Source: a virus. Taken from it: 64,000 bases of DNA. The stretch lies in IMG/VR virus record IMGVR_UViG_3300044568_004364. One strand, written 5' to 3'. Numbering within the stretch: the first letter of the stretch is position 1; each line of letters opens with the position of its first letter. The notes beneath the pieces are model-generated. The model had not been told where the DNA came from. It was given only the letters and a program-made list of their open reading frames with translations, and ran no database searches. The translations under genes were made by a program, and so were the position numbers. Positions 6,298-13,577 of the stretch are shown here, piece by piece.

Positions 6298-7983
6298 TTA
6301 GGCACCAATCTCATTAAATTGAATACCGCTGCGTGATGCAACAAAGTTAAGCGTGATATAGTTAATTGAGCGCGAAGGCTTAATGTAAATATCGGCGATA
6401 AAACGATTAGTATCAATAACTTGCGGAGTATTATTTGTCTCATCGCATACTATACGATAATCAGTAACACCACGGCGTGATTGAACATCTCTTAAGAGTG
6501 GCTCAATCGTATTGACAAATGCGCTACGAGTAAATTCATCGTTTAATTCAAACAATTGGAATTTAGCTGCAATACCACATGCACGTTGTAGGCTGTTAAA
6601 TAGGCGGCGTACATTAATACGATCAAATGCGCTTGCACGTGATTGGCCTGTCTTATCTCCTAGAAGTACAATACCTTGGCCTGCTGTATTTACAATAGGA
6701 TTGATATTTGTTGCATACAGTTCATCACGATCAACTTGTACTGGATTGTATGCAAGTTTGGTTACACCGCGTAATTGACCACGATTATAGCCTGCTGGTG
6801 AGAACCATGCATCCGCTACACTATCGGTATATGCGCATAGGCCTGCTATATGTCCGCATGCTGGAATCCATTTGTACTCATCTGCATACTTGTTATATAC
6901 ATAAACTGGTGTGCTATCAAACACAACATAACTGCTTGGATCACTAATTGCAGCTTTTGCCGCAATTACTGCATTCTTTTTAGCAGTTTCAGATGTTTGG
7001 GTATATAGATTCAAAGGCGCAGACAGGAATGCCATACAATCTTTACGTCCTACCACAACTCCATTCAATTTGACATTCACTGTAGTATCAGATGTGAATG
7101 CTTCTGCAAAGAGCAAATTGATATCAACAGTTTCGATATCAGCAAATATATTTAATGCTGTAACAACATTAGCTGCAACACGTGTACCGTTAGCACCAGC
7201 ATTAAATCCATATATGCCTGTGCCAGCCAACGTATATGTGCTGCTTGCTAGTGTACGAACAATTGCAGGATCTCCAGCAAATACGTATGATGAGCCGTTA
7301 TTAAGTACATTGACAAAGTAATTGGATGCTCCGCTTACAGTTTTTGCATTTGCATTTAATGATAACCCTTGGAATGTTTCTAATACTGCACCCTTAACTC
7401 CAGTAAATTCTCCATTCTTATCAAATACAGCTATATGTATTTCGTCATTAGTGTAAACTGTTGTGCTTACGCTGCTTGCCCATGTTGTTGTACTAGGAGC
7501 AAGGTCAAAATATTGTTTACGCTCTGCTGCTAAGGTTGCTTCATTGTTTGCATGAAACAATTTAACTTCAAGCGTGTTCCCAATAGCGCCTGGGCAGCGT
7601 GCATAGAATGCATCAAGTAATGTAGCAATTTTTAAATCGTAATCTTCTTTATTCTTGATAAGCACACCAGGACCAGTTGTATATCCAGATTCGCCAGCTG
7701 CATTAAGAGCACTAGCTCCAACACAACGCACAACCTTTAATGAATTTCCATATTTTAGGAAACTCTCAGCGGTCAAGAATGACTCTGCATTCGGGTCGCC
7801 TGCTTGTTTGGGTGTCCCAAATATTTCACCCAAGTTTTTCTCAGATGATATATTAGTAATTTCGTCAACAGGACCCCAGTTAAAATGTCCAACGTATGCT
7901 CCTATTGATGCAGATGTTGGTTGTGCTACCGTTGTTAAATCAGTTTCAGTGATTTGAACGCCTACGCTTTGTAAATATGCCAT
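6298..7983 (-). CDS. gp18: Tail sheath protein
   Basis: WFSPAGYNRG, SAFDRINVRRLF, FELNDEFTR, CDETNNTPQVID, IYIKPSRSINYI; late promoter 8055-8062. Confidence 0.97.
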   Translation of the reverse strand: MAYLQSVGVQITETDLTTVAQPTSASIGAYVGHFNWGPVDEITNISSEKNLGEIFGTPKQAGDPNAESFLTAESFLKYGNSLKVVRCVGASALNAAGESGYTTGPGVLIKNKEDYDLKIATLLDAFYARCPGAIGNTLEVKLFHANNEATLAAERKQYFDLAPSTTTWASSVSTTVYTNDEIHIAVFDKNGEFTGVKGAVLETFQGLSLNANAKTVSGASNYFVNVLNNGSSYVFAGDPAIVRTLASSTYTLAGTGIYGFNAGANGTRVAANVVTALNIFADIETVDINLLFAEAFTSDTTVNVKLNGVVVGRKDCMAFLSAPLNLYTQTSETAKKNAVIAAKAAISDPSSYVVFDSTPVYVYNKYADEYKWIPACGHIAGLCAYTDSVADAWFSPAGYNRGQLRGVTKLAYNPVQVDRDELYATNINPIVNTAGQGIVLLGDKTGQSRASAFDRINVRRLFNSLQRACGIAAKFQLFELNDEFTRSAFVNTIEPLLRDVQSRRGVTDYRIVCDETNNTPQVIDTNRFIADIYIKPSRSINYITLNFVASRSGIQFNEIGA

Positions 7984-8073
7984 ATTTGTTTTTTGCCTTT
8001 CTCAGTGCTTAATTATAAGTTTGAAACATAATAAGAATTTTTTCAATCTACTTTTATTTATAAAAACAGGGTT

Positions 8074-9465
8074 TTACAAGCCTTTCCACTCGTTAATTGA
8101 TTCCATTTGCTCTCTATAATGAGCCATGCTAGGCGTAAGATCATTTTCATTATGAGAATTAATAATACCAAACGGCGGTAAGTCATCCTCCATCTCTCGT
8201 ATCTTTTCGCTATAGAGCAAGTCTTTAAGCTGTATATTACTCATGCCACCAAATGCGTCGGTGCTAACAAACCATGCAAACATAACAAGGTTCATTACGC
8301 TATCATCATGTGCAATGCCGCGTGCCGCATAACTATCTCCTTTTGGCTCAAAGCTGCTAAGTTCTGCAATTGTATTTGCATCGTATATCATTAACTTACC
8401 TTGCTCAATCAAGTCTTTTAGATTGCTGCAACCAATACGTTTAACTCGTTTGGTCATAGTGACACCAATGCCACTACTCTTTATACTGCTTTGCACAAAG
8501 ACGTTATCATATTCGTAATCATAATATATCGCATTACATACAACTTGTCCTGCATCGTTATTTTCAACAACCACAAGTGCATTACCGTATGACTTAGCAG
8601 CACGTATAATATATTCTGGGTACATTAACGGCGATACATTGTTATTACGATATGTACACACCTGCTTAAATGTTTCGCCAGAAATATCAAATACAGAAAA
8701 TGTACTATAGTCCTGCCCACGCCCTTTGCTTACATCTACCGTCAAGATATAGTCATGACCTTCAATAGGTTGCTCATAGTAGAGTATATCATATTGATTA
8801 CGTATCGGATCACGCGCTTGTAATCCAAGAAGCGCATCAGATGATATAAGTGTCTGCGAACTACCGATAAAAGAAACTTCAAACTCTTGCTTAAATTGTA
8901 ATTCACTGCTATTGGCAATAGTCTGACGCTTCCATGCTTCATCACGCCCAGGTACATCTTGCCATTTAATCGTGAATGGTTTAAATTCATTTGAACGTTG
9001 AATTGCACCTTCCCATAATTTATAGAACATATTGCCTACACCATTAGGTGTACTTGTAATAATAACCTTTGTATCTTTACCAGAACTAATTACAGGATAT
9101 GTACTCGTATAAAATTCATTTGCTTTATGCACAAACGCGAACTCATCAAGAAAGATACAATTATGACTGACTACACTGTTGGTATAATACGCATGTGTAT
9201 CTTCTACCTCTAATAAGTCATATACCTTTTCAGATTTAACATTTCTAATATCGATGATTTTAATATCACCAAATAATATATCCCCAACATTTAGAAATGA
9301 ACATGGTATGTAAGTAAATCCATCCTGACATAAAAATTCATGTTCAGGTGTACATTTAATATGTTCGCCATTATCAAATTGTACGAATAATAATTTTTCA
9401 GCTATCCCTTGGTCAAGTATAGCTTCAAATTTTTTAAATCCATTATGTGTTAAAACTTCAATCAT
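8074..9465 (-). CDS. gp17: Terminase large subunit, C-terminal part: 102-aa C-intein + Walker B and nuclease domains
   Basis: After ...YYTNSVVSHN the sequence resumes CIFLDEFAFV, TSTPNG, VDVSKGRGQDYS, HDDSVM. Confidence 0.95.
   Translation of the reverse strand: MIEVLTHNGFKKFEAILDQGIAEKLLFVQFDNGEHIKCTPEHEFLCQDGFTYIPCSFLNVGDILFGDIKIIDIRNVKSEKVYDLLEVEDTHAYYTNSVVSHNCIFLDEFAFVHKANEFYTSTYPVISSGKDTKVIITSTPNGVGNMFYKLWEGAIQRSNEFKPFTIKWQDVPGRDEAWKRQTIANSSELQFKQEFEVSFIGSSQTLISSDALLGLQARDPIRNQYDILYYEQPIEGHDYILTVDVSKGRGQDYSTFSVFDISGETFKQVCTYRNNNVSPLMYPEYIIRAAKSYGNALVVVENNDAGQVVCNAIYYDYEYDNVFVQSSIKSSGIGVTMTKRVKRIGCSNLKDLIEQGKLMIYDANTIAELSSFEPKGDSYAARGIAHDDSVMNLVMFAWFVSTDAFGGMSNIQLKDLLYSEKIREMEDDLPPFGIINSHNENDLTPSMAHYREQMESINEWKGL
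9160..9465 (-). mobile_element. C-terminal fragment of split intein 2
   Basis: Block B CTPEH, block F KVYDL, block G SHN followed by +1 Cys; own ATG overlaps the upstream stop (ATGA 9462-9465). Confidence 0.9.
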
Positions 9466-10403
9466 ATTTTAGTGCGATTAACCCATTTTTCAGGTTGTTC
9501 ACCTATATTAAAATAACCACGTTCAGATGTGTTTTCTGGATTAACATAATATTTTTTACCTTTATTTTTTGCAGATTTACCCTTTTTTGCCGATGACATT
9601 TTTAATTTACAATCATCGCTTCTTGTCATACCGCGATGTTTTTCTGCAGTCTTTTTAATTTTTTCAGGATTTTTATTAATCTTATCAACATGCTCTTTTG
9701 ATTTTTTAATACCCGTCAAACCAGCACTTATATTATTACAATGTTCTTTTGTTTTCTTTACTCCTTTTAATTTTTCTGATATGATTTTACCGGTTGCTTT
9801 TCTAGTGTCGGGTAATGAAGCAATCATTTGTATGCGTTTCATATAAACATTCACTGCCGCTTGTTGATCATCAGTATCAACAAATTTAATTGGCTTTTCA
9901 GAGTTACCGCAATCGCATATTAATTTAATTCTAGCAGCATAGTTATTTGTATCTTCATCATAACCTAATTTGTTTATTGCATCTTCCAGTGTTTCAAAAA
10001 TGCGGCCATCATCATGAATAATTTTTTTACCAGTCCCAGAATGTTTTCCAACTTTAGCTTCACGTAATTTTTCTTTTGTTTCTTTGGAGTGTGTCTTACC
10101 GTAAAAGCCATTATTTGGGCCGTGTAATACTAGTATGTTTCCGCCTTCCGAAAGATTATATGTATCTTCACGCAAGGTAAAATCTTTATTAACAATACGT
10201 CTTTCTTCATTTTCTGCATCAGCTTTATTATCAAAAACTGATAATATTTCTTTTTTAAAATTAGCGATGCCATACTTTTCTATAGCTCTTTTTATAAGTT
10301 TACCACTGCCCATATAGCCATCATTTAAATCATTAGTTGCATGATAGCCAACATAAATTTTATTGTTTATTAGATTTGTTATTTTATAGACAGTGTAATG
10401 CAT
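9462..10403 (-). mobile_element. GIY-YIG (Seg-like) homing endonuclease with NUMOD3-type repeats, in frame with N-intein 2
   Basis: MHYTVYKITNLINNKIYVGYH...YMGSG...FKKEIL...YNLSEGG; FYGKTHSKETKEKL; internal late promoter 10430-10437. Confidence 0.9.
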
Positions 10404-12341
10404 AATTTCTTTCTCGATGAATTTACTTTTATTTATAAAATCATCAATTTCAGCATAGTAAATATTATCATTTATGTTAACACAAATCTTAGCATCTCCA
10501 GTGACACAATTCATACTCAAGCCACGAATGCTGCTACCGCTTGTGGCTGCCGCAATAATTTCGCTGTTATTACTAAAGAGTATGTTACCTTTATTTAATA
10601 CCTTACACCCAGGCTGTAGGAAGAATGGTAAGTTTTCCAACATCAGCGTAATACGTGATAACATCTCACGTGCCGTTGCACCTTTGTTTGCAAGTATACC
10701 TATCTTTTTATTTGCGTTAAAGATTGCATAATGAAGGAGCCATGCGACACTTGTAATCGAATTGTGTGACAGAATATCGTTTGTGTAAAATCGGTGATCA
10801 GTAAAATCTACCCCAAGATCATACATCTCAACCTCTTTACCACATCTCTGAACTCCAACAACTTTGGAACACCCATCTTTTGTTTGTATAACAGATCCTT
10901 CTTTTAAATCTTTAACATAGACATTATCAAATTCTTCATTAAATAAAATATGGTTATCAGCACAGCGTAGATATTTCCCGCATTCTGTTTTTACCTCCCA
11001 GATGGTATATGGTATAGTTTTATGCGATTGTTTTAAAGGTTGAAATCCGCTATCAGTTTCAACCACGAAGCCGAAGCCCTCGAAGGATTCTATGAATTTT
11101 TTAGTTGATGGCAGTTGTCGAAATGCCACCTCGACATCGCTGATGGATCTCCGATCTTTCCGCAGTGCGGACACTGTGCCTTCTTTCTTTTTCTCGCCAT
11201 GCTTTTTATATTTTCTATATGTTCCTTCGTAAACTTCCTCCCTTTGAGACGTTCTGAAAGTTTGTTCTTTGTTTCCGCTGATGTTACCTTCCCCTTTCCA
11301 GCCTTTGAGAGTTTCTTCTTCGTTTCCTCGGATGTTACCCTTCCCGTGTTCGGTGATACATAATCCGGATCCGCGTGAAGTTTCCTCAGGCCTTTTGATA
11401 TATTTTCTTTGTGTTCCTCGGATTGAGCGTATCCACGTAATGACTCTGAATTTGTTTTCCGGTTTTTCATCCTCTCCCGAAACTTTGTCTCCCCCCAAAT
11501 AGATTTTATTTTCTTGGAGATATTCTTTTTGGATTCTTCCGAATGATTTTTGTTTAGCATGCCCCTTGGATGAACCTCGTGAGTTTTTCCATAAAAGGGA
11601 TTTTTCTCTCCACTGTTTTCCTCCGATAAAACATTTATGAAGTTGGTTCGAGCATTTTCGTATAAACGTGAGGATTTTATTTTTATGCCATCTCGTGTGT
11701 GCATCATCATGTGAAGGGCATAAACCATCTTCTTCCATTCTGGGCTGCACTTTGGAAACATCTTCACTAATAAAAGATGAGCGATAAAATGCTCTCTTAA
11801 AGTTAATGTCACTAGGTTCTCTTCTAAATTGTTTCCACCACACCCTTTTGGAAAAATATGATGCCTCTCCCCAGAGTTTAACAAACAGCGCTTGCGCTTC
11901 TCCATCAGGCAAAAATAGGTCTTTGAATACTTGTTCTTTAGGCAGGTCATGTTTATATTTATAAAACAATGACTTCTGAAGCGTACTTAATGCATAAAAT
12001 ATTTCGTGAACTAGTGATATTTTTGCTCGCAACGGAGGGCCATCAAGAAACTTGATGGTAATCTCTGTTTCCCCGACACTGCATTTCCCGCTTTGGCGAC
12101 ATGCAAGGATAATGGTAAAACGATTATCCGAAAAATGTTTTACCATTTTTTCTTGATAACCGCGCAGCTTAAATGGCACTAGTCCATGATCTAAGCTAAT
12201 AACCTTTACGTACTTTTCGGCAAAGTAACCTACATCAGCCATGCAGCGACGATATTCATTAACTTCATGCGCCGTGAAACTTTGCTGTACACCATCACGC
12301 TTGATATAAATGTTTCCATTATAGGAATCTGGTGTTGTCAT
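9462..12341 (-). CDS. gp17: Terminase large subunit, N-terminal part: extein + intein 1 + extein + N-intein 2 fused to GIY-YIG endonuclease
   Basis: T4 gp17 N-terminus (YNGN, LRGYQ, RQSGK Walker A); exteins join as RQSGK|SITSVAWLLHY and SSIRGLSMN|CIFLDEF; spliced product 86+84+361 = 531 aa. Confidence 0.93.
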   Translation of the reverse strand: MTTPDSYNGNIYIKRDGVQQSFTAHEVNEYRRCMADVGYFAEKYVKVISLDHGLVPFKLRGYQEKMVKHFSDNRFTIILACRQSGKCSVGETEITIKFLDGPPLRAKISLVHEIFYALSTLQKSLFYKYKHDLPKEQVFKDLFLPDGEAQALFVKLWGEASYFSKRVWWKQFRREPSDINFKRAFYRSSFISEDVSKVQPRMEEDGLCPSHDDAHTRWHKNKILTFIRKCSNQLHKCFIGGKQWREKSLLWKNSRGSSKGHAKQKSFGRIQKEYLQENKIYLGGDKVSGEDEKPENKFRVITWIRSIRGTQRKYIKRPEETSRGSGLCITEHGKGNIRGNEEETLKGWKGEGNISGNKEQTFRTSQREEVYEGTYRKYKKHGEKKKEGTVSALRKDRRSISDVEVAFRQLPSTKKFIESFEGFGFVVETDSGFQPLKQSHKTIPYTIWEVKTECGKYLRCADNHILFNEEFDNVYVKDLKEGSVIQTKDGCSKVVGVQRCGKEVEMYDLGVDFTDHRFYTNDILSHNSITSVAWLLHYAIFNANKKIGILANKGATAREMLSRITLMLENLPFFLQPGCKVLNKGNILFSNNSEIIAAATSGSSIRGLSMNCVTGDAKICVNINDNIYYAEIDDFINKSKFIEKEIMHYTVYKITNLINNKIYVGYHATNDLNDGYMGSGKLIKRAIEKYGIANFKKEILSVFDNKADAENEERRIVNKDFTLREDTYNLSEGGNILVLHGPNNGFYGKTHSKETKEKLREAKVGKHSGTGKKIIHDDGRIFETLEDAINKLGYDEDTNNYAARIKLICDCGNSEKPIKFVDTDDQQAAVNVYMKRIQMIASLPDTRKATGKIISEKLKGVKKTKEHCNNISAGLTGIKKSKEHVDKINKNPEKIKKTAEKHRGMTRSDDCKLKMSSAKKGKSAKNKGKKYYVNPENTSERGYFNIGEQPEKWVNRTKI
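10404..10508 (-). mobile_element. Short (35-aa) N-terminal fragment of split intein 2
   Basis: Block A CVTGDAKICV...AEIDDF inserted just before the Walker B motif. Confidence 0.85.
10430..10437 (-). promoter_or_regulatory. Late promoter inside N-intein 2 for the GIY-YIG gene
   Basis: Exact TATAAATA 26 nt upstream of ATG at 10403. Confidence 0.7.
11090..11950 (-). CDS. HNH homing endonuclease (Mob-like) with NUMOD3-type repeats and C-terminal Zn ribbon, nested out of frame in intein 1
   Basis: ERHHIFPKGCGGNNLEENLVTLTLREHFIAHLLL; NPFYGKTH; HSEESKKNIS repeats; CPHCGK...RWHFDNC; late promoter 11956-11963. Confidence 0.9.
   Translation of the reverse strand: MTCLKNKYSKTYFCLMEKRKRCLLNSGERHHIFPKGCGGNNLEENLVTLTLREHFIAHLLLVKMFPKCSPEWKKMVYALHMMMHTRDGIKIKSSRLYENARTNFINVLSEENSGEKNPFYGKTHEVHPRGMLNKNHSEESKKNISKKIKSIWGETKFRERMKNRKTNSESLRGYAQSEEHKENISKGLRKLHADPDYVSPNTGRVTSEETKKKLSKAGKGKVTSAETKNKLSERLKGRKFTKEHIENIKSMARKRKKAQCPHCGKIGDPSAMSRWHFDNCHQLKNS
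11956..11963 (-). promoter_or_regulatory. Late promoter inside intein 1 for the HNH gene
   Basis: Exact TATAAATA 5 nt upstream of the HNH ATG. Confidence 0.75.
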
Positions 12342-12796
12342 TATATTTCAACTGTTTCAGTTGGAGCGCTCTGTAGCAGCTTTTGTAACTCTGAAGTAGT
12401 GCCGACAAATATTGCATTATTTGTAGTGCCGCCACCACCAGAATTGTTTGGCTTCTGCTGTGTTTCATCTTGTATAATTTTCTTACGCTCTTTCTGTAGC
12501 GTTAGGAGCTGACCGTTAATTTCAGCTGCAGTTTTAATCATACCGGCCAAGACTTCAAATGCGCGCGGATGTTCTGCATCACTTGCTAGTGCATGCATTG
12601 TACCAATTGCCTCATCACTTGTATCAATAAGTTTCTTTATGTGCGCTCTTGCGTATGCATAGTCTTCTTCAGCATCAATTACTATTTCAGCGTGTGATGG
12701 TGCAGGATCCTTACCAGATTCAATAACCATTTCCTTTTTTACTGGAGCTAGGTTTGATTGGAGCGATGCTAATATACTATCTTTATCCTTTTTCAT
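12341..12796 (-). CDS. gp16: Terminase small subunit
   Basis: DYAYAR, EHPRAFEV, NNAIFVGTTSELQKLL; upstream of gp17 with TAATG coupling; start placed at MKKDKD (uncertain). Confidence 0.9.
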   Translation of the reverse strand: MKKDKDSILASLQSNLAPVKKEMVIESGKDPAPSHAEIVIDAEEDYAYARAHIKKLIDTSDEAIGTMHALASDAEHPRAFEVLAGMIKTAAEINGQLLTLQKERKKIIQDETQQKPNNSGGGGTTNNAIFVGTTSELQKLLQSAPTETVEI

Positions 12797-12800
12797 AATC

Positions 12801-13577
12801 TTAAGGTTCGTCATCAAACCCGTAGGTTGTAACTACGGTATAATCTTCAGGTGTGTCATTCTCAGGATCACCAAGAGATACATTTACGGTGTCAACTGCA
12901 GTTGATGTTGCTGTCTTAGCACCGTCATAAAAGTTAACATCAACATATTTAATAATTTTTCCAGGTGCACTTTGTATACCTCTAAACTTTACTTTAATAT
13001 CAAAATCTAATGTATACATGATTGTGCGTCGTGTATTTGCAAAGTCACCTTCATAGTCATCTTGGAATGAAGTACCCGTCAACATAAATGGTACGTCAGT
13101 AATGCTATCAGGACCTTCAAGATCCTTTACAGCAACCGTATATTCTGGCGTAAAGTAGGGTATAATTTGTTCAAAGATTTGCAGCGCATCATCTTGATAA
13201 CGCGCCATAATATTCAACTGCATACCTATGCGATATGGCGTTGCGCTATAGACACGTGTGCGAGATTCATTATCTGCGCCGCTGCTGTATAGCGTGCTAT
13301 TAAGACGATTTAGTTTTGATGTAGAGTCATAACTTATTGATGTAATATCAAAACTCATGCGCGGCAGATTCATTGCAATGTCGCCATTCTCTTCATTAAT
13401 TTGATTTGCAAGACGTGCCAAGAATTTTTGACGAGGCCCATATGATATAGGTACACGCTGTATACCCGTCATTTTGCCGTTAACTTTTTTTGCAATACTA
13501 ATGTTATTAAAGAGTGTACCAAATACGGCAACAATCTTTTTTAGGTTTGCGTTATAATAGTAAGAATCGCTTAACAT
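12801..13577 (-). CDS. gp15: Tail sheath terminator/stabilizer
   Basis: FGTLFNNI, VPISYGPRQKFL, LPRMSFDI, QIFEQIIPYFTP, DDYEGDF. Confidence 0.93.
   Translation of the reverse strand: MLSDSYYYNANLKKIVAVFGTLFNNISIAKKVNGKMTGIQRVPISYGPRQKFLARLANQINEENGDIAMNLPRMSFDITSISYDSTSKLNRLNSTLYSSGADNESRTRVYSATPYRIGMQLNIMARYQDDALQIFEQIIPYFTPEYTVAVKDLEGPDSITDVPFMLTGTSFQDDYEGDFANTRRTIMYTLDFDIKVKFRGIQSAPGKIIKYVDVNFYDGAKTATSTAVDTVNVSLGDPENDTPEDYTVVTTYGFDDEP

Follow-up and report, generated by a model that had tools for sequence, protein, structure and literature searches.

Two class-1 inteins, each interrupted close to its N-terminus by a homing endonuclease gene, were found in the large terminase gene (gp17, encoding TerL) of IMG/VR virus record IMGVR_UViG_3300044568_004364. 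The analysis covered a stretch of 64,000 nucleotides (nt) from this record, hereafter the window. The frame of intein 1 runs without a stop through an HNH endonuclease gene that is encoded in another frame. Intein 2 is split: its short N-terminal fragment (IntN) continues in frame into a GIY-YIG endonuclease, and its C-terminal fragment (IntC) opens the next open reading frame (ORF). Comparison with related loci suggests that intein 1 probably cis-splices across the stop-free HNH read-through and that intein 2 is probably a translationally coupled, endonuclease-tailed, trans-splicing split intein. The two layouts would then be alternative, stable arrangements and not stages of one process.

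9462..12341, minus strand: ORF A, 959 amino acids (aa)
8074..9465, minus strand: ORF B, 463 aa
9462-9465, minus strand: ATGA, shared by the ORF A stop and the ORF B start; candidate for termination-reinitiation coupling
10761..12083, minus strand: intein 1, a 441-aa insert that spans ORF A residues 87-527 and separates the GK from the S of Walker A; placed by extein alignment
11952..12083, minus strand: N-terminal splicing segment of intein 1, 44 aa, hairpin plus helix; AlphaFold2 (AF2) model and split relatives
11090..11950, minus strand: HNH-NUMOD3 homing endonuclease gene, 286 aa plus stop; PHROG, NUMOD3 and HNH core alignment
10761..11102, minus strand: C-terminal splicing segment of intein 1, 114 aa, from KKFIES, overlapping the HNH stop codon; alignment to split C-fragments
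10404..10508, minus strand: IntN of intein 2 (IntN2), 35 aa from Cys612; alignments to the TerL of phage C48C1 and to mini-inteins
9462..10403, minus strand: GIY-YIG (SegE-like) homing endonuclease with NUMOD3, 313 aa; Pfam and PHROG
9160..9465, minus strand: IntC of intein 2 (IntC2), 102 aa, opening ORF B; phmmer match to CatC

Intein 1 is contiguous within one ORF and has the class-1 residues C87, block B ADNH and SHN527, with S528 at +1. The HNH ORF starts 44 aa after Cys1 in a frame other than that of the intein, and its DNA, read in its +2 frame, forms a 285-aa insert of intein 1. At the downstream end, the HNH stop codon (TAG) overlaps the KKFIE codons, where homology to the C-fragments of split relatives begins. 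The C-terminal segment aligned from its first residues to the starts of 12 split C-fragments and to CatC (PDB 6DSL), and the 44-aa N-terminal segment is in the length class of the 36-42 aa N-fragments of split relatives. The HNH protein matched the homing endonuclease family PHROG 655 (E 2e-43), contains four NUMOD3 stretches and has a core (HH...N...H) that aligned to solved HNH domains; Pfam HNH models gave no match to it. AF2 modeled the C-part of intein 1 at a predicted local distance difference test score (pLDDT) of 85-98 and the insert at below 50. The C-part (model residues 331-449) adopts a HINT fold, with Z scores of 14.8 to VidaL (6VGW), 13.5 to gp41-1 (6RIZ) and, over 112 residues, 13.4 to Cat chain B (6DSL_B). 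A structure search with the 285-aa insert returned generic helices only and no fold match.

The intein frame crosses the HNH gene with 0 stops in 286 codons. Synonymous-codon shuffles of the gene gave a mean of about 15 stops, none of 20,000 reached 0, and the third frame of the same gene contains 25. At least 6 other TerL inteins carry an out-of-frame HNH gene with a stop-free +2 frame. These are at the insertion site of intein 2 (site 2), where TerL ORFs, 929-966 aa long, continue across an HNH-NUMOD3 gene located between IntN and IntC (L113, L117/118, L119, L125 and L128; L117 and L118 are cut by contig ends). Each site-2 overprint has 0 stops where 12-17 are expected (five loci tested by shuffles, 0/5,000 in each), and the overprint phase is always +2, identical in all seven loci including the window. 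Of 80 HNH homologues, 76 are free-standing and have 10-46 stops in the +2 frame; 0 stops occurred only in the nested genes, and no intermediates with 1-9 stops were present among the 80. Substitutions between L113 and L118, a close pair, were 24 synonymous and 17 non-synonymous in the HNH frame, and 9 and 32 in the intein frame. These results support selection on the overprint.

Intein 2 extends from Cys612 of ORF A, after N611, to Asn102 of ORF B, just before Walker B, and has the class-1 residues C612, block B TPEH and SHN102, with C103 at +1. IntN2 aligned to the N-terminal part of contiguous mini-inteins that occupy this TerL site, such as the one in protein P0013, and is 63-66% identical in relatives. 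IntC2 matched CatC (PDB 6DSL_B) by phmmer (E 3.3e-11 over 102 aa) and was aligned with 19 relatives. This places intein 2 among the atypically split inteins of the AceL/GOS-TerL (Cat) family. The GIY-YIG start codon (10403) lies in frame 35 aa after Cys1 with no stop between IntN2 and the endonuclease, so that the two form a single ORF, which ends at the TGA of the ATGA overlap. Taken alone, the 313-aa protein scored 25.0 bits against Pfam SegE_GIY-YIG, right at the 25-bit cut-off, and 17.1 bits against Pfam GIY-YIG, under the cut-off of 22.6 bits; it also matched PHROG 314 (E 2e-41) and Pfam NUMOD3.

No Shine-Dalgarno-like sequence was found before the ORF B start codon, and ORF B is likely initiated by coupling at the ATGA. 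The geometry in which the stop follows the start at +1 is also present in L082, L084, L088, L089 and L101, and in about 10 lineages the end of the IntN-GIY-YIG ORF and the IntC start are no more than a few nt apart. The predicted ATGA-type translational coupling at intein 2 is thus consistent with a geometry conserved in relatives. We also observed a C-terminal motif, HVDKINKNPEKI.KTAEKHRGM.RS, that is common to the window GIY-YIG protein (9462-9720) and to site-2 overprinted HNH genes elsewhere (L113:3356-4057, L119:4276-5046, L125:1690-2433 and L128:4270-5046). It is absent from the site-1 HNH gene of the window. The common motif suggests different nuclease heads on one DNA-binding tail for the same TerL target.

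The gp17 gene lies on the minus strand within a T4-like phage structural module with the gene order neck/gp15, small terminase (12341..12817), large terminase and tail sheath (6298..7983). Both inteins are precise in-frame inserts at conserved sites, intein 1 at the GK|S of Walker A (site 1) and intein 2 at the residue before Walker B. Their removal leaves a 531-aa TerL without interruption. Splice junctions were set by alignment to the closest TerL, the 56% identical, inteinless protein of phage C48C1 (Kyanoviridae), and define three extein pieces.

12084..12341, minus strand: TerL N-extein piece 1 (ORF A residues 1-86), ending in the Walker A ...RQSGK; C48C1 alignment
10509..10760, minus strand: TerL middle extein (ORF A residues 528-611), 76% identical to C48C1 TerL
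8074..9159, minus strand: TerL C-extein, 361 aa plus stop, with the +1 Cys, IFLDEF (Walker B) and the nuclease domain; C48C1 alignment and Pfam

N-extein piece 1 is 60% identical to residues 5-88 of C48C1 TerL and 70-82% identical to relatives, and in inteinless relatives the middle extein joins it directly. The C-extein is 56% identical to C48C1 TerL over 343 aa and matched Pfam Terminase_6N and Terminase_6C. Inteinless TerL genes were found in C48C1 and in dozens of loci, and close inteinless relatives show empty target sites. Upstream, the small-terminase stop and the TerL start overlap as TAATG (window 12339-12343). Should each of these overlaps couple translation, a single coupled chain would extend from the small-terminase gene through ORF A to ORF B.

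The original prediction described a late-promoter motif, TATAAATA, embedded in the coding sequence of both inteins just upstream of the nuclease genes, and the motif was found at both places, as were all other features it described, at the coordinates it gave.

11956-11963, minus strand: TATAAATA late-promoter motif, translated as Y-K-Y by the intein and located 5 nt ahead of the HNH ATG
10430-10437, minus strand: TATAAATA late-promoter motif, translated as I-N-K and located within a hairpin, 26 nt ahead of the GIY-YIG ATG

In the window, 23 copies of TATAAATA were counted where 8.6 are expected, with 22 on the minus (coding) strand; the two copies ahead of the nuclease genes are putative late promoters. 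The hairpin around the motif at 10430-10437 has a folding energy of -9.3 kcal/mol (z -2.0), which 7 of 200 shuffles matched. Roughly the last 10 codons of IntN2 overlap this putative endonuclease promoter and leader. TATAAATA at the I-N-K codons is kept in 7 lineages with the GIY-YIG cassette; in a protein-level comparison, I-N-K was absent at that point from most contiguous mini-intein proteins, and P0013 has the similar T-N-K-S. The motif within IntN codons thus accompanies the endonuclease cassette, in agreement with the proposed promoter-bearing endonuclease unit.

The prediction further held that unrelated nuclease genes interrupt both inteins 35-45 aa after the catalytic Cys and that the two points are equivalent. 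The first part is borne out, with the HNH gene at 44 aa and the GIY-YIG gene at 35 aa. For the second, the strand that follows the HNH gene (VVETDSGF) aligned to gp41-1 residue 29 and the strand that follows the GIY-YIG gene (EVLTHNGF) to residue 30, and intein 1 retains about 12 additional residues ahead of that strand. The insertions therefore occupy the same linker, between the N-terminal hairpin and helix and the gp41-1 29-30 strand, which is also the Cat split site, but not the same residue. This linker after block A is a recurrent landing site in this intein family, as had been suggested: the endonuclease ORFs that relatives carry there include GIY-YIG, HNH and other types, and may be fused, free-standing, nested or out of frame.

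Under the cis- and trans-splicing reading given at the outset, ribosomes translating TerL would traverse the HNH gene in its +2 frame, from which selection would have removed the stops. The insert of about 285 aa so produced is predicted to be unstructured and would separate the 44-aa N-part from the 114-aa C-part of intein 1, whose cis-splicing would rebuild Walker A. Translation of the HNH endonuclease would be a separate event that begins at the ATG at 11950 and uses the frame of the HNH gene. At the ATGA, ribosomes would finish ORF A and reinitiate on ORF B, whose first 102 codons encode the C-fragment, and trans-splicing of intein 2 would join the TerL halves just before Walker B. The GIY-YIG endonuclease could be produced either attached to the N-fragment as its tail or by itself, with a late promoter and start codon of its own. 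Both endonucleases may cut inteinless TerL alleles of co-infecting phages, with the intein and endonuclease then copied together.

Several observations weigh against this reading. The AF2 model placed the N-terminal hairpin of intein 1 (two strands and a helix) at a pLDDT of only about 60, which leaves a complete fold across the 285-aa insert tentative. No Shine-Dalgarno sequence was found before the HNH ATG, and TATAAATA is so near this ATG that a late transcript would be almost leaderless. Purifying selection on the HNH frame was measured in relatives; the window copy's own relative, on contig L136, is 99% identical and partial and differs at too few positions for such a measurement.

Another possibility, which we regard as unlikely, is that the continuity of intein 1 is secondary, the gap of a split ancestor having been filled by recombination with a pre-adapted HNH cassette whose +2 frame was already free of stops. 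The intein tree places the window intein 1 within a site-1 clade whose six other members are all split. With 106 columns and short alignments, the inner support of this tree is weak; alignment A4 was used, and A3, in which IntN rows were misplaced, was set aside. In the HNH phylogenies, which are quick trees, the six site-2 overprinted genes form one clade (Shimodaira-Hasegawa-like approximate likelihood ratio test, 96), and the phase relative to the intein is identical in all seven loci. However, the window HNH gene falls outside this clade in the free tree, on a long branch among free-standing genes, and does not have the C-terminal DNA-binding motif of that clade. An approximately unbiased (AU) test did not reject a single clade of overprinted HNH genes including the window copy (p-AU 0.305).

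At site 1, all 12 relatives found are split C-fragments, and some of their hosts are other ATPases. The gap between the halves holds other endonuclease ORFs (L006, L216 and L218) or nothing (L217). Pfam gave no useful match for the intervening ORFs of split site-1 loci, and PHROGs labeled them only as "endonuclease". In L217 (L217:1163-3263), a site-1 split intein that lacks an endonuclease, 5 nt separate the end of the N-fragment ORF from the start of the C-fragment ORF. Proteins P0124 and P0129 also have atypically split inteins of the site-1 type, one host being an SbcC/gp46-like ATPase and the other a different type of terminase; their position at the P-loop points to transfer between ATPases through the common GK|S/T site.

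Site 2 showed a wider range of states. Many alleles are inteinless. Contiguous mini-inteins occur in P0013, P0026, P0044, L091-L099 and L107; contiguous forms with a truncated in-frame GIY-YIG occur in P0008 and L123, and L126 retains NUMOD3 remnants only. IntN and GIY-YIG form one ORF with a separate IntC in about 10 lineages (L082-L089, L100-L102, L110, P0131 and the window). Free-standing GIY-YIG genes are found in L098, L108 and L131, and other endonuclease types in L111-L114. L115 (L115:1-2290) shows the reverse fusion: its N-fragment ORF stops after a short IntN, and its GIY-YIG is in frame with IntC and the C-extein.

The original prediction read the two inteins of the window as successive stages, freshly caught between a contiguous mini-intein and an atypically split intein, in which overprinting rescues an out-of-frame insertion and fission an in-frame one. 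Both endonuclease genes do occupy the same linker, endonuclease-less contiguous mini-inteins exist at site 2, and such invasions are predicted by a published gene-breaking model (PMC2677866). L120 and L122 carry the same HNH family in the same phase with 31 stops and are truly split. No locus with 1-9 stops was found. A fresh out-of-frame insertion would bring 10-46 stops, so that stepwise rescue would not be available unless the intein was already working as a split intein. Furthermore, each layout is old and conserved across relatives at 35-65% identity, and intein 1 nests among split relatives. Taken together, these results argue against successive stages, and we consider that account improbable.

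The order of states at site 2 also bears on this point. Mini-inteins and GIY-fused forms interleave in the intein tree (for example, L089 is sister to L091/L093), which is compatible with traffic in both directions between contiguous and split forms. In 4 of 11 contiguous mini-intein lineages (L091, L107, P0013 and P0011), a Met is kept at the position where the split-form C-fragment starts. This suggests reversal from split to contiguous; the retained Met may be left over from a split ancestor, or it may pre-adapt the intein to splitting. These sequence comparisons point to repeated interconversion of states among relatives.

T4-like phage HNH and GIY-YIG endonucleases are often located in group I introns. 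Neither the open frame nor the fusion would matter if the endonuclease regions were group I or group II introns excised from the RNA. Such excision would leave unexplained a stop-free second frame of 286 codons that is conserved in seven loci, and the flanks are genuine intein halves matching solved split inteins. A search of positions 8000-12900 against Rfam at E up to 1 returned no match, and the intron explanation, which we hold to be very improbable, was therefore dropped. There is next to no likelihood of an assembly or sequencing artefact or a decaying pseudogene: although the sequence is of metagenome type and megablast of 8000-12900 against deposited phages found no match at the DNA level, the 959-aa ORF A is recorded on 7 contigs, the independent contig L136 is 99% identical across the start of intein 1 and the HNH gene, the same layouts recur in dozens of unrelated contigs, all catalytic residues are intact, and the sole TerL copy found in the window has the small-terminase gene on one side and the tail-sheath gene on the other, the gene order usual for T4-like phages.

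A third TerL intein site, about 95 residues into the C-extein and holding a related intein, was seen in relatives.

L005:7592-8611, L019:811-1832, L024:7601-8622, L054:3453-4475 and L074:795-1817: third-site inteins; also protein P0029

The third-site inteins are fractured, with 32-47 stops in the TerL frame, and P0029 has a contiguous mini-intein. Third-site inserts with IntN and IntC in one frame were considered as further overprints and ruled out by their 32-34 stops.

Intein 2 resembles the AceL-TerL, GOS-TerL and consensus Cat inteins (Thiel 2014; Bachmann & Mootz 2015; Stevens 2018, PDB 6DSL), which, as outlined in PMC11766414, have a TerL host, an N-fragment of 25-37 aa and a C-fragment of about 104 aa. 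The window shares with them the TerL host and the short N-fragment, intein 2 being split 35 aa after Cys1 and IntC2 matching CatC. Unlike those inteins, IntN2 continues in frame into a 313-aa GIY-YIG endonuclease, and intein 1 has the same break point yet is one unsplit ORF.

Fractured phage genes in which a same-strand endonuclease gene, GIY-YIG among the types, lies between the halves of a split intein were described by Dassa et al. 2009 (PMC2677866). These include a gp17 "Terminase" locus from Lake Gatun in which the break lies unusually close to the N-terminus and the C-part is 122 aa. The same study reported TATAAATA and a hairpin upstream of the endonuclease and an endonuclease 3' end that overlaps the IntC start, and its model has a free-standing endonuclease invade a mini-intein. 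In the window, the GIY-YIG gene is likewise preceded by TATAAATA in a hairpin, and its 3' end overlaps the IntC start on the same strand (ATGA, 9462-9465). The genes of Dassa et al. 2009 have a stop and 27-51 nt of non-coding sequence between IntN and the endonuclease, whereas no stop separates IntN2 from GIY-YIG in the window, nor in the other members of the group of about 10 lineages. That study stated that GIY-YIG was unknown inside inteins and did not describe out-of-frame read-through (PMC2677866). A promoter-in-hairpin control is also described for the intein-less fractured gene Aeh1 nrdA/mobE (Gibb & Edgell, as cited in PMC2677866). The window is similar in having TATAAATA in a hairpin just upstream of a gene-splitting endonuclease ORF; it differs in having an intein, and with 7 of 200 shuffles as good its hairpin is modest and a regulatory role putative.

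Out-of-frame endonucleases have been reported in cyanobacterial dnaX inteins (Gorbalenya 1998, as cited; Phillips et al. 2026, bioRxiv 10.64898/2026.09.14.751524) and actinophage inteins (Gosselin et al. 2025, bioRxiv 10.1101/2025.01.02.630785), and ShiLan has a hidden HNH gene in a non-intein insert (PMC11855218). As in the dnaX and actinophage inteins, a contiguous host ORF is stop-free across a same-strand endonuclease gene in another frame, the endonuclease frame is under purifying selection (here in the relatives L113/L118), the in-frame product has no recognizable structure, and the proposed origin is invasion by a free-standing endonuclease. The present case differs in the endonuclease (HNH-NUMOD3 here, LAGLIDADG or EndoVII-like there), in its T4-like TerL host and in its position at the N-proximal atypical split site instead of the usual endonuclease region. 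Here the overprint also shares one gene with a split intein.

The gene-breaking model, the atypically split gp17 intein and the late-promoter motifs are thus already published (PMC2677866), as are out-of-frame intein endonucleases (preprints). What is new is the type of endonuclease in the overprint and where the overprint lies, together with the fusion of IntN to GIY-YIG and the occurrence of both in one gene. Gene callers will overlook the nested HNH gene and mislabel ORF A, for which the precomputed Pfam annotation is NUMOD3 only.

Both layouts would let ribosomes of the host gene cross the whole endonuclease gene, and the downstream part of the essential gene would therefore still be expressed. 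Such passage is, we infer, the selective reason for both layouts. More speculatively, and with little confidence, endonuclease genes inside essential phage genes might generally be selected for ribosome passability, either by in-frame fusion to IntN or by clearing a second frame of stops. The N-proximal linker would then be a docking bay for circulating two-frame-open HNH cassettes and for swappable nuclease heads on a shared tail, and the IntN-GIY-YIG fusion might link nuclease production or activity to trans-splicing.

One essential gene here combines a contiguous intein that has a 285-aa read-through insert at an atypical split site with a split intein whose short N-fragment is fused to a folded 313-aa protein, and both bear on the design of short-N-fragment split inteins for protein labeling. 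These findings indicate that a GIY-YIG endonuclease can be a physical part of an intein polypeptide, and that out-of-frame intein endonucleases, until now described as rarities, make up a conserved clade in the terminases of T4-like phages.

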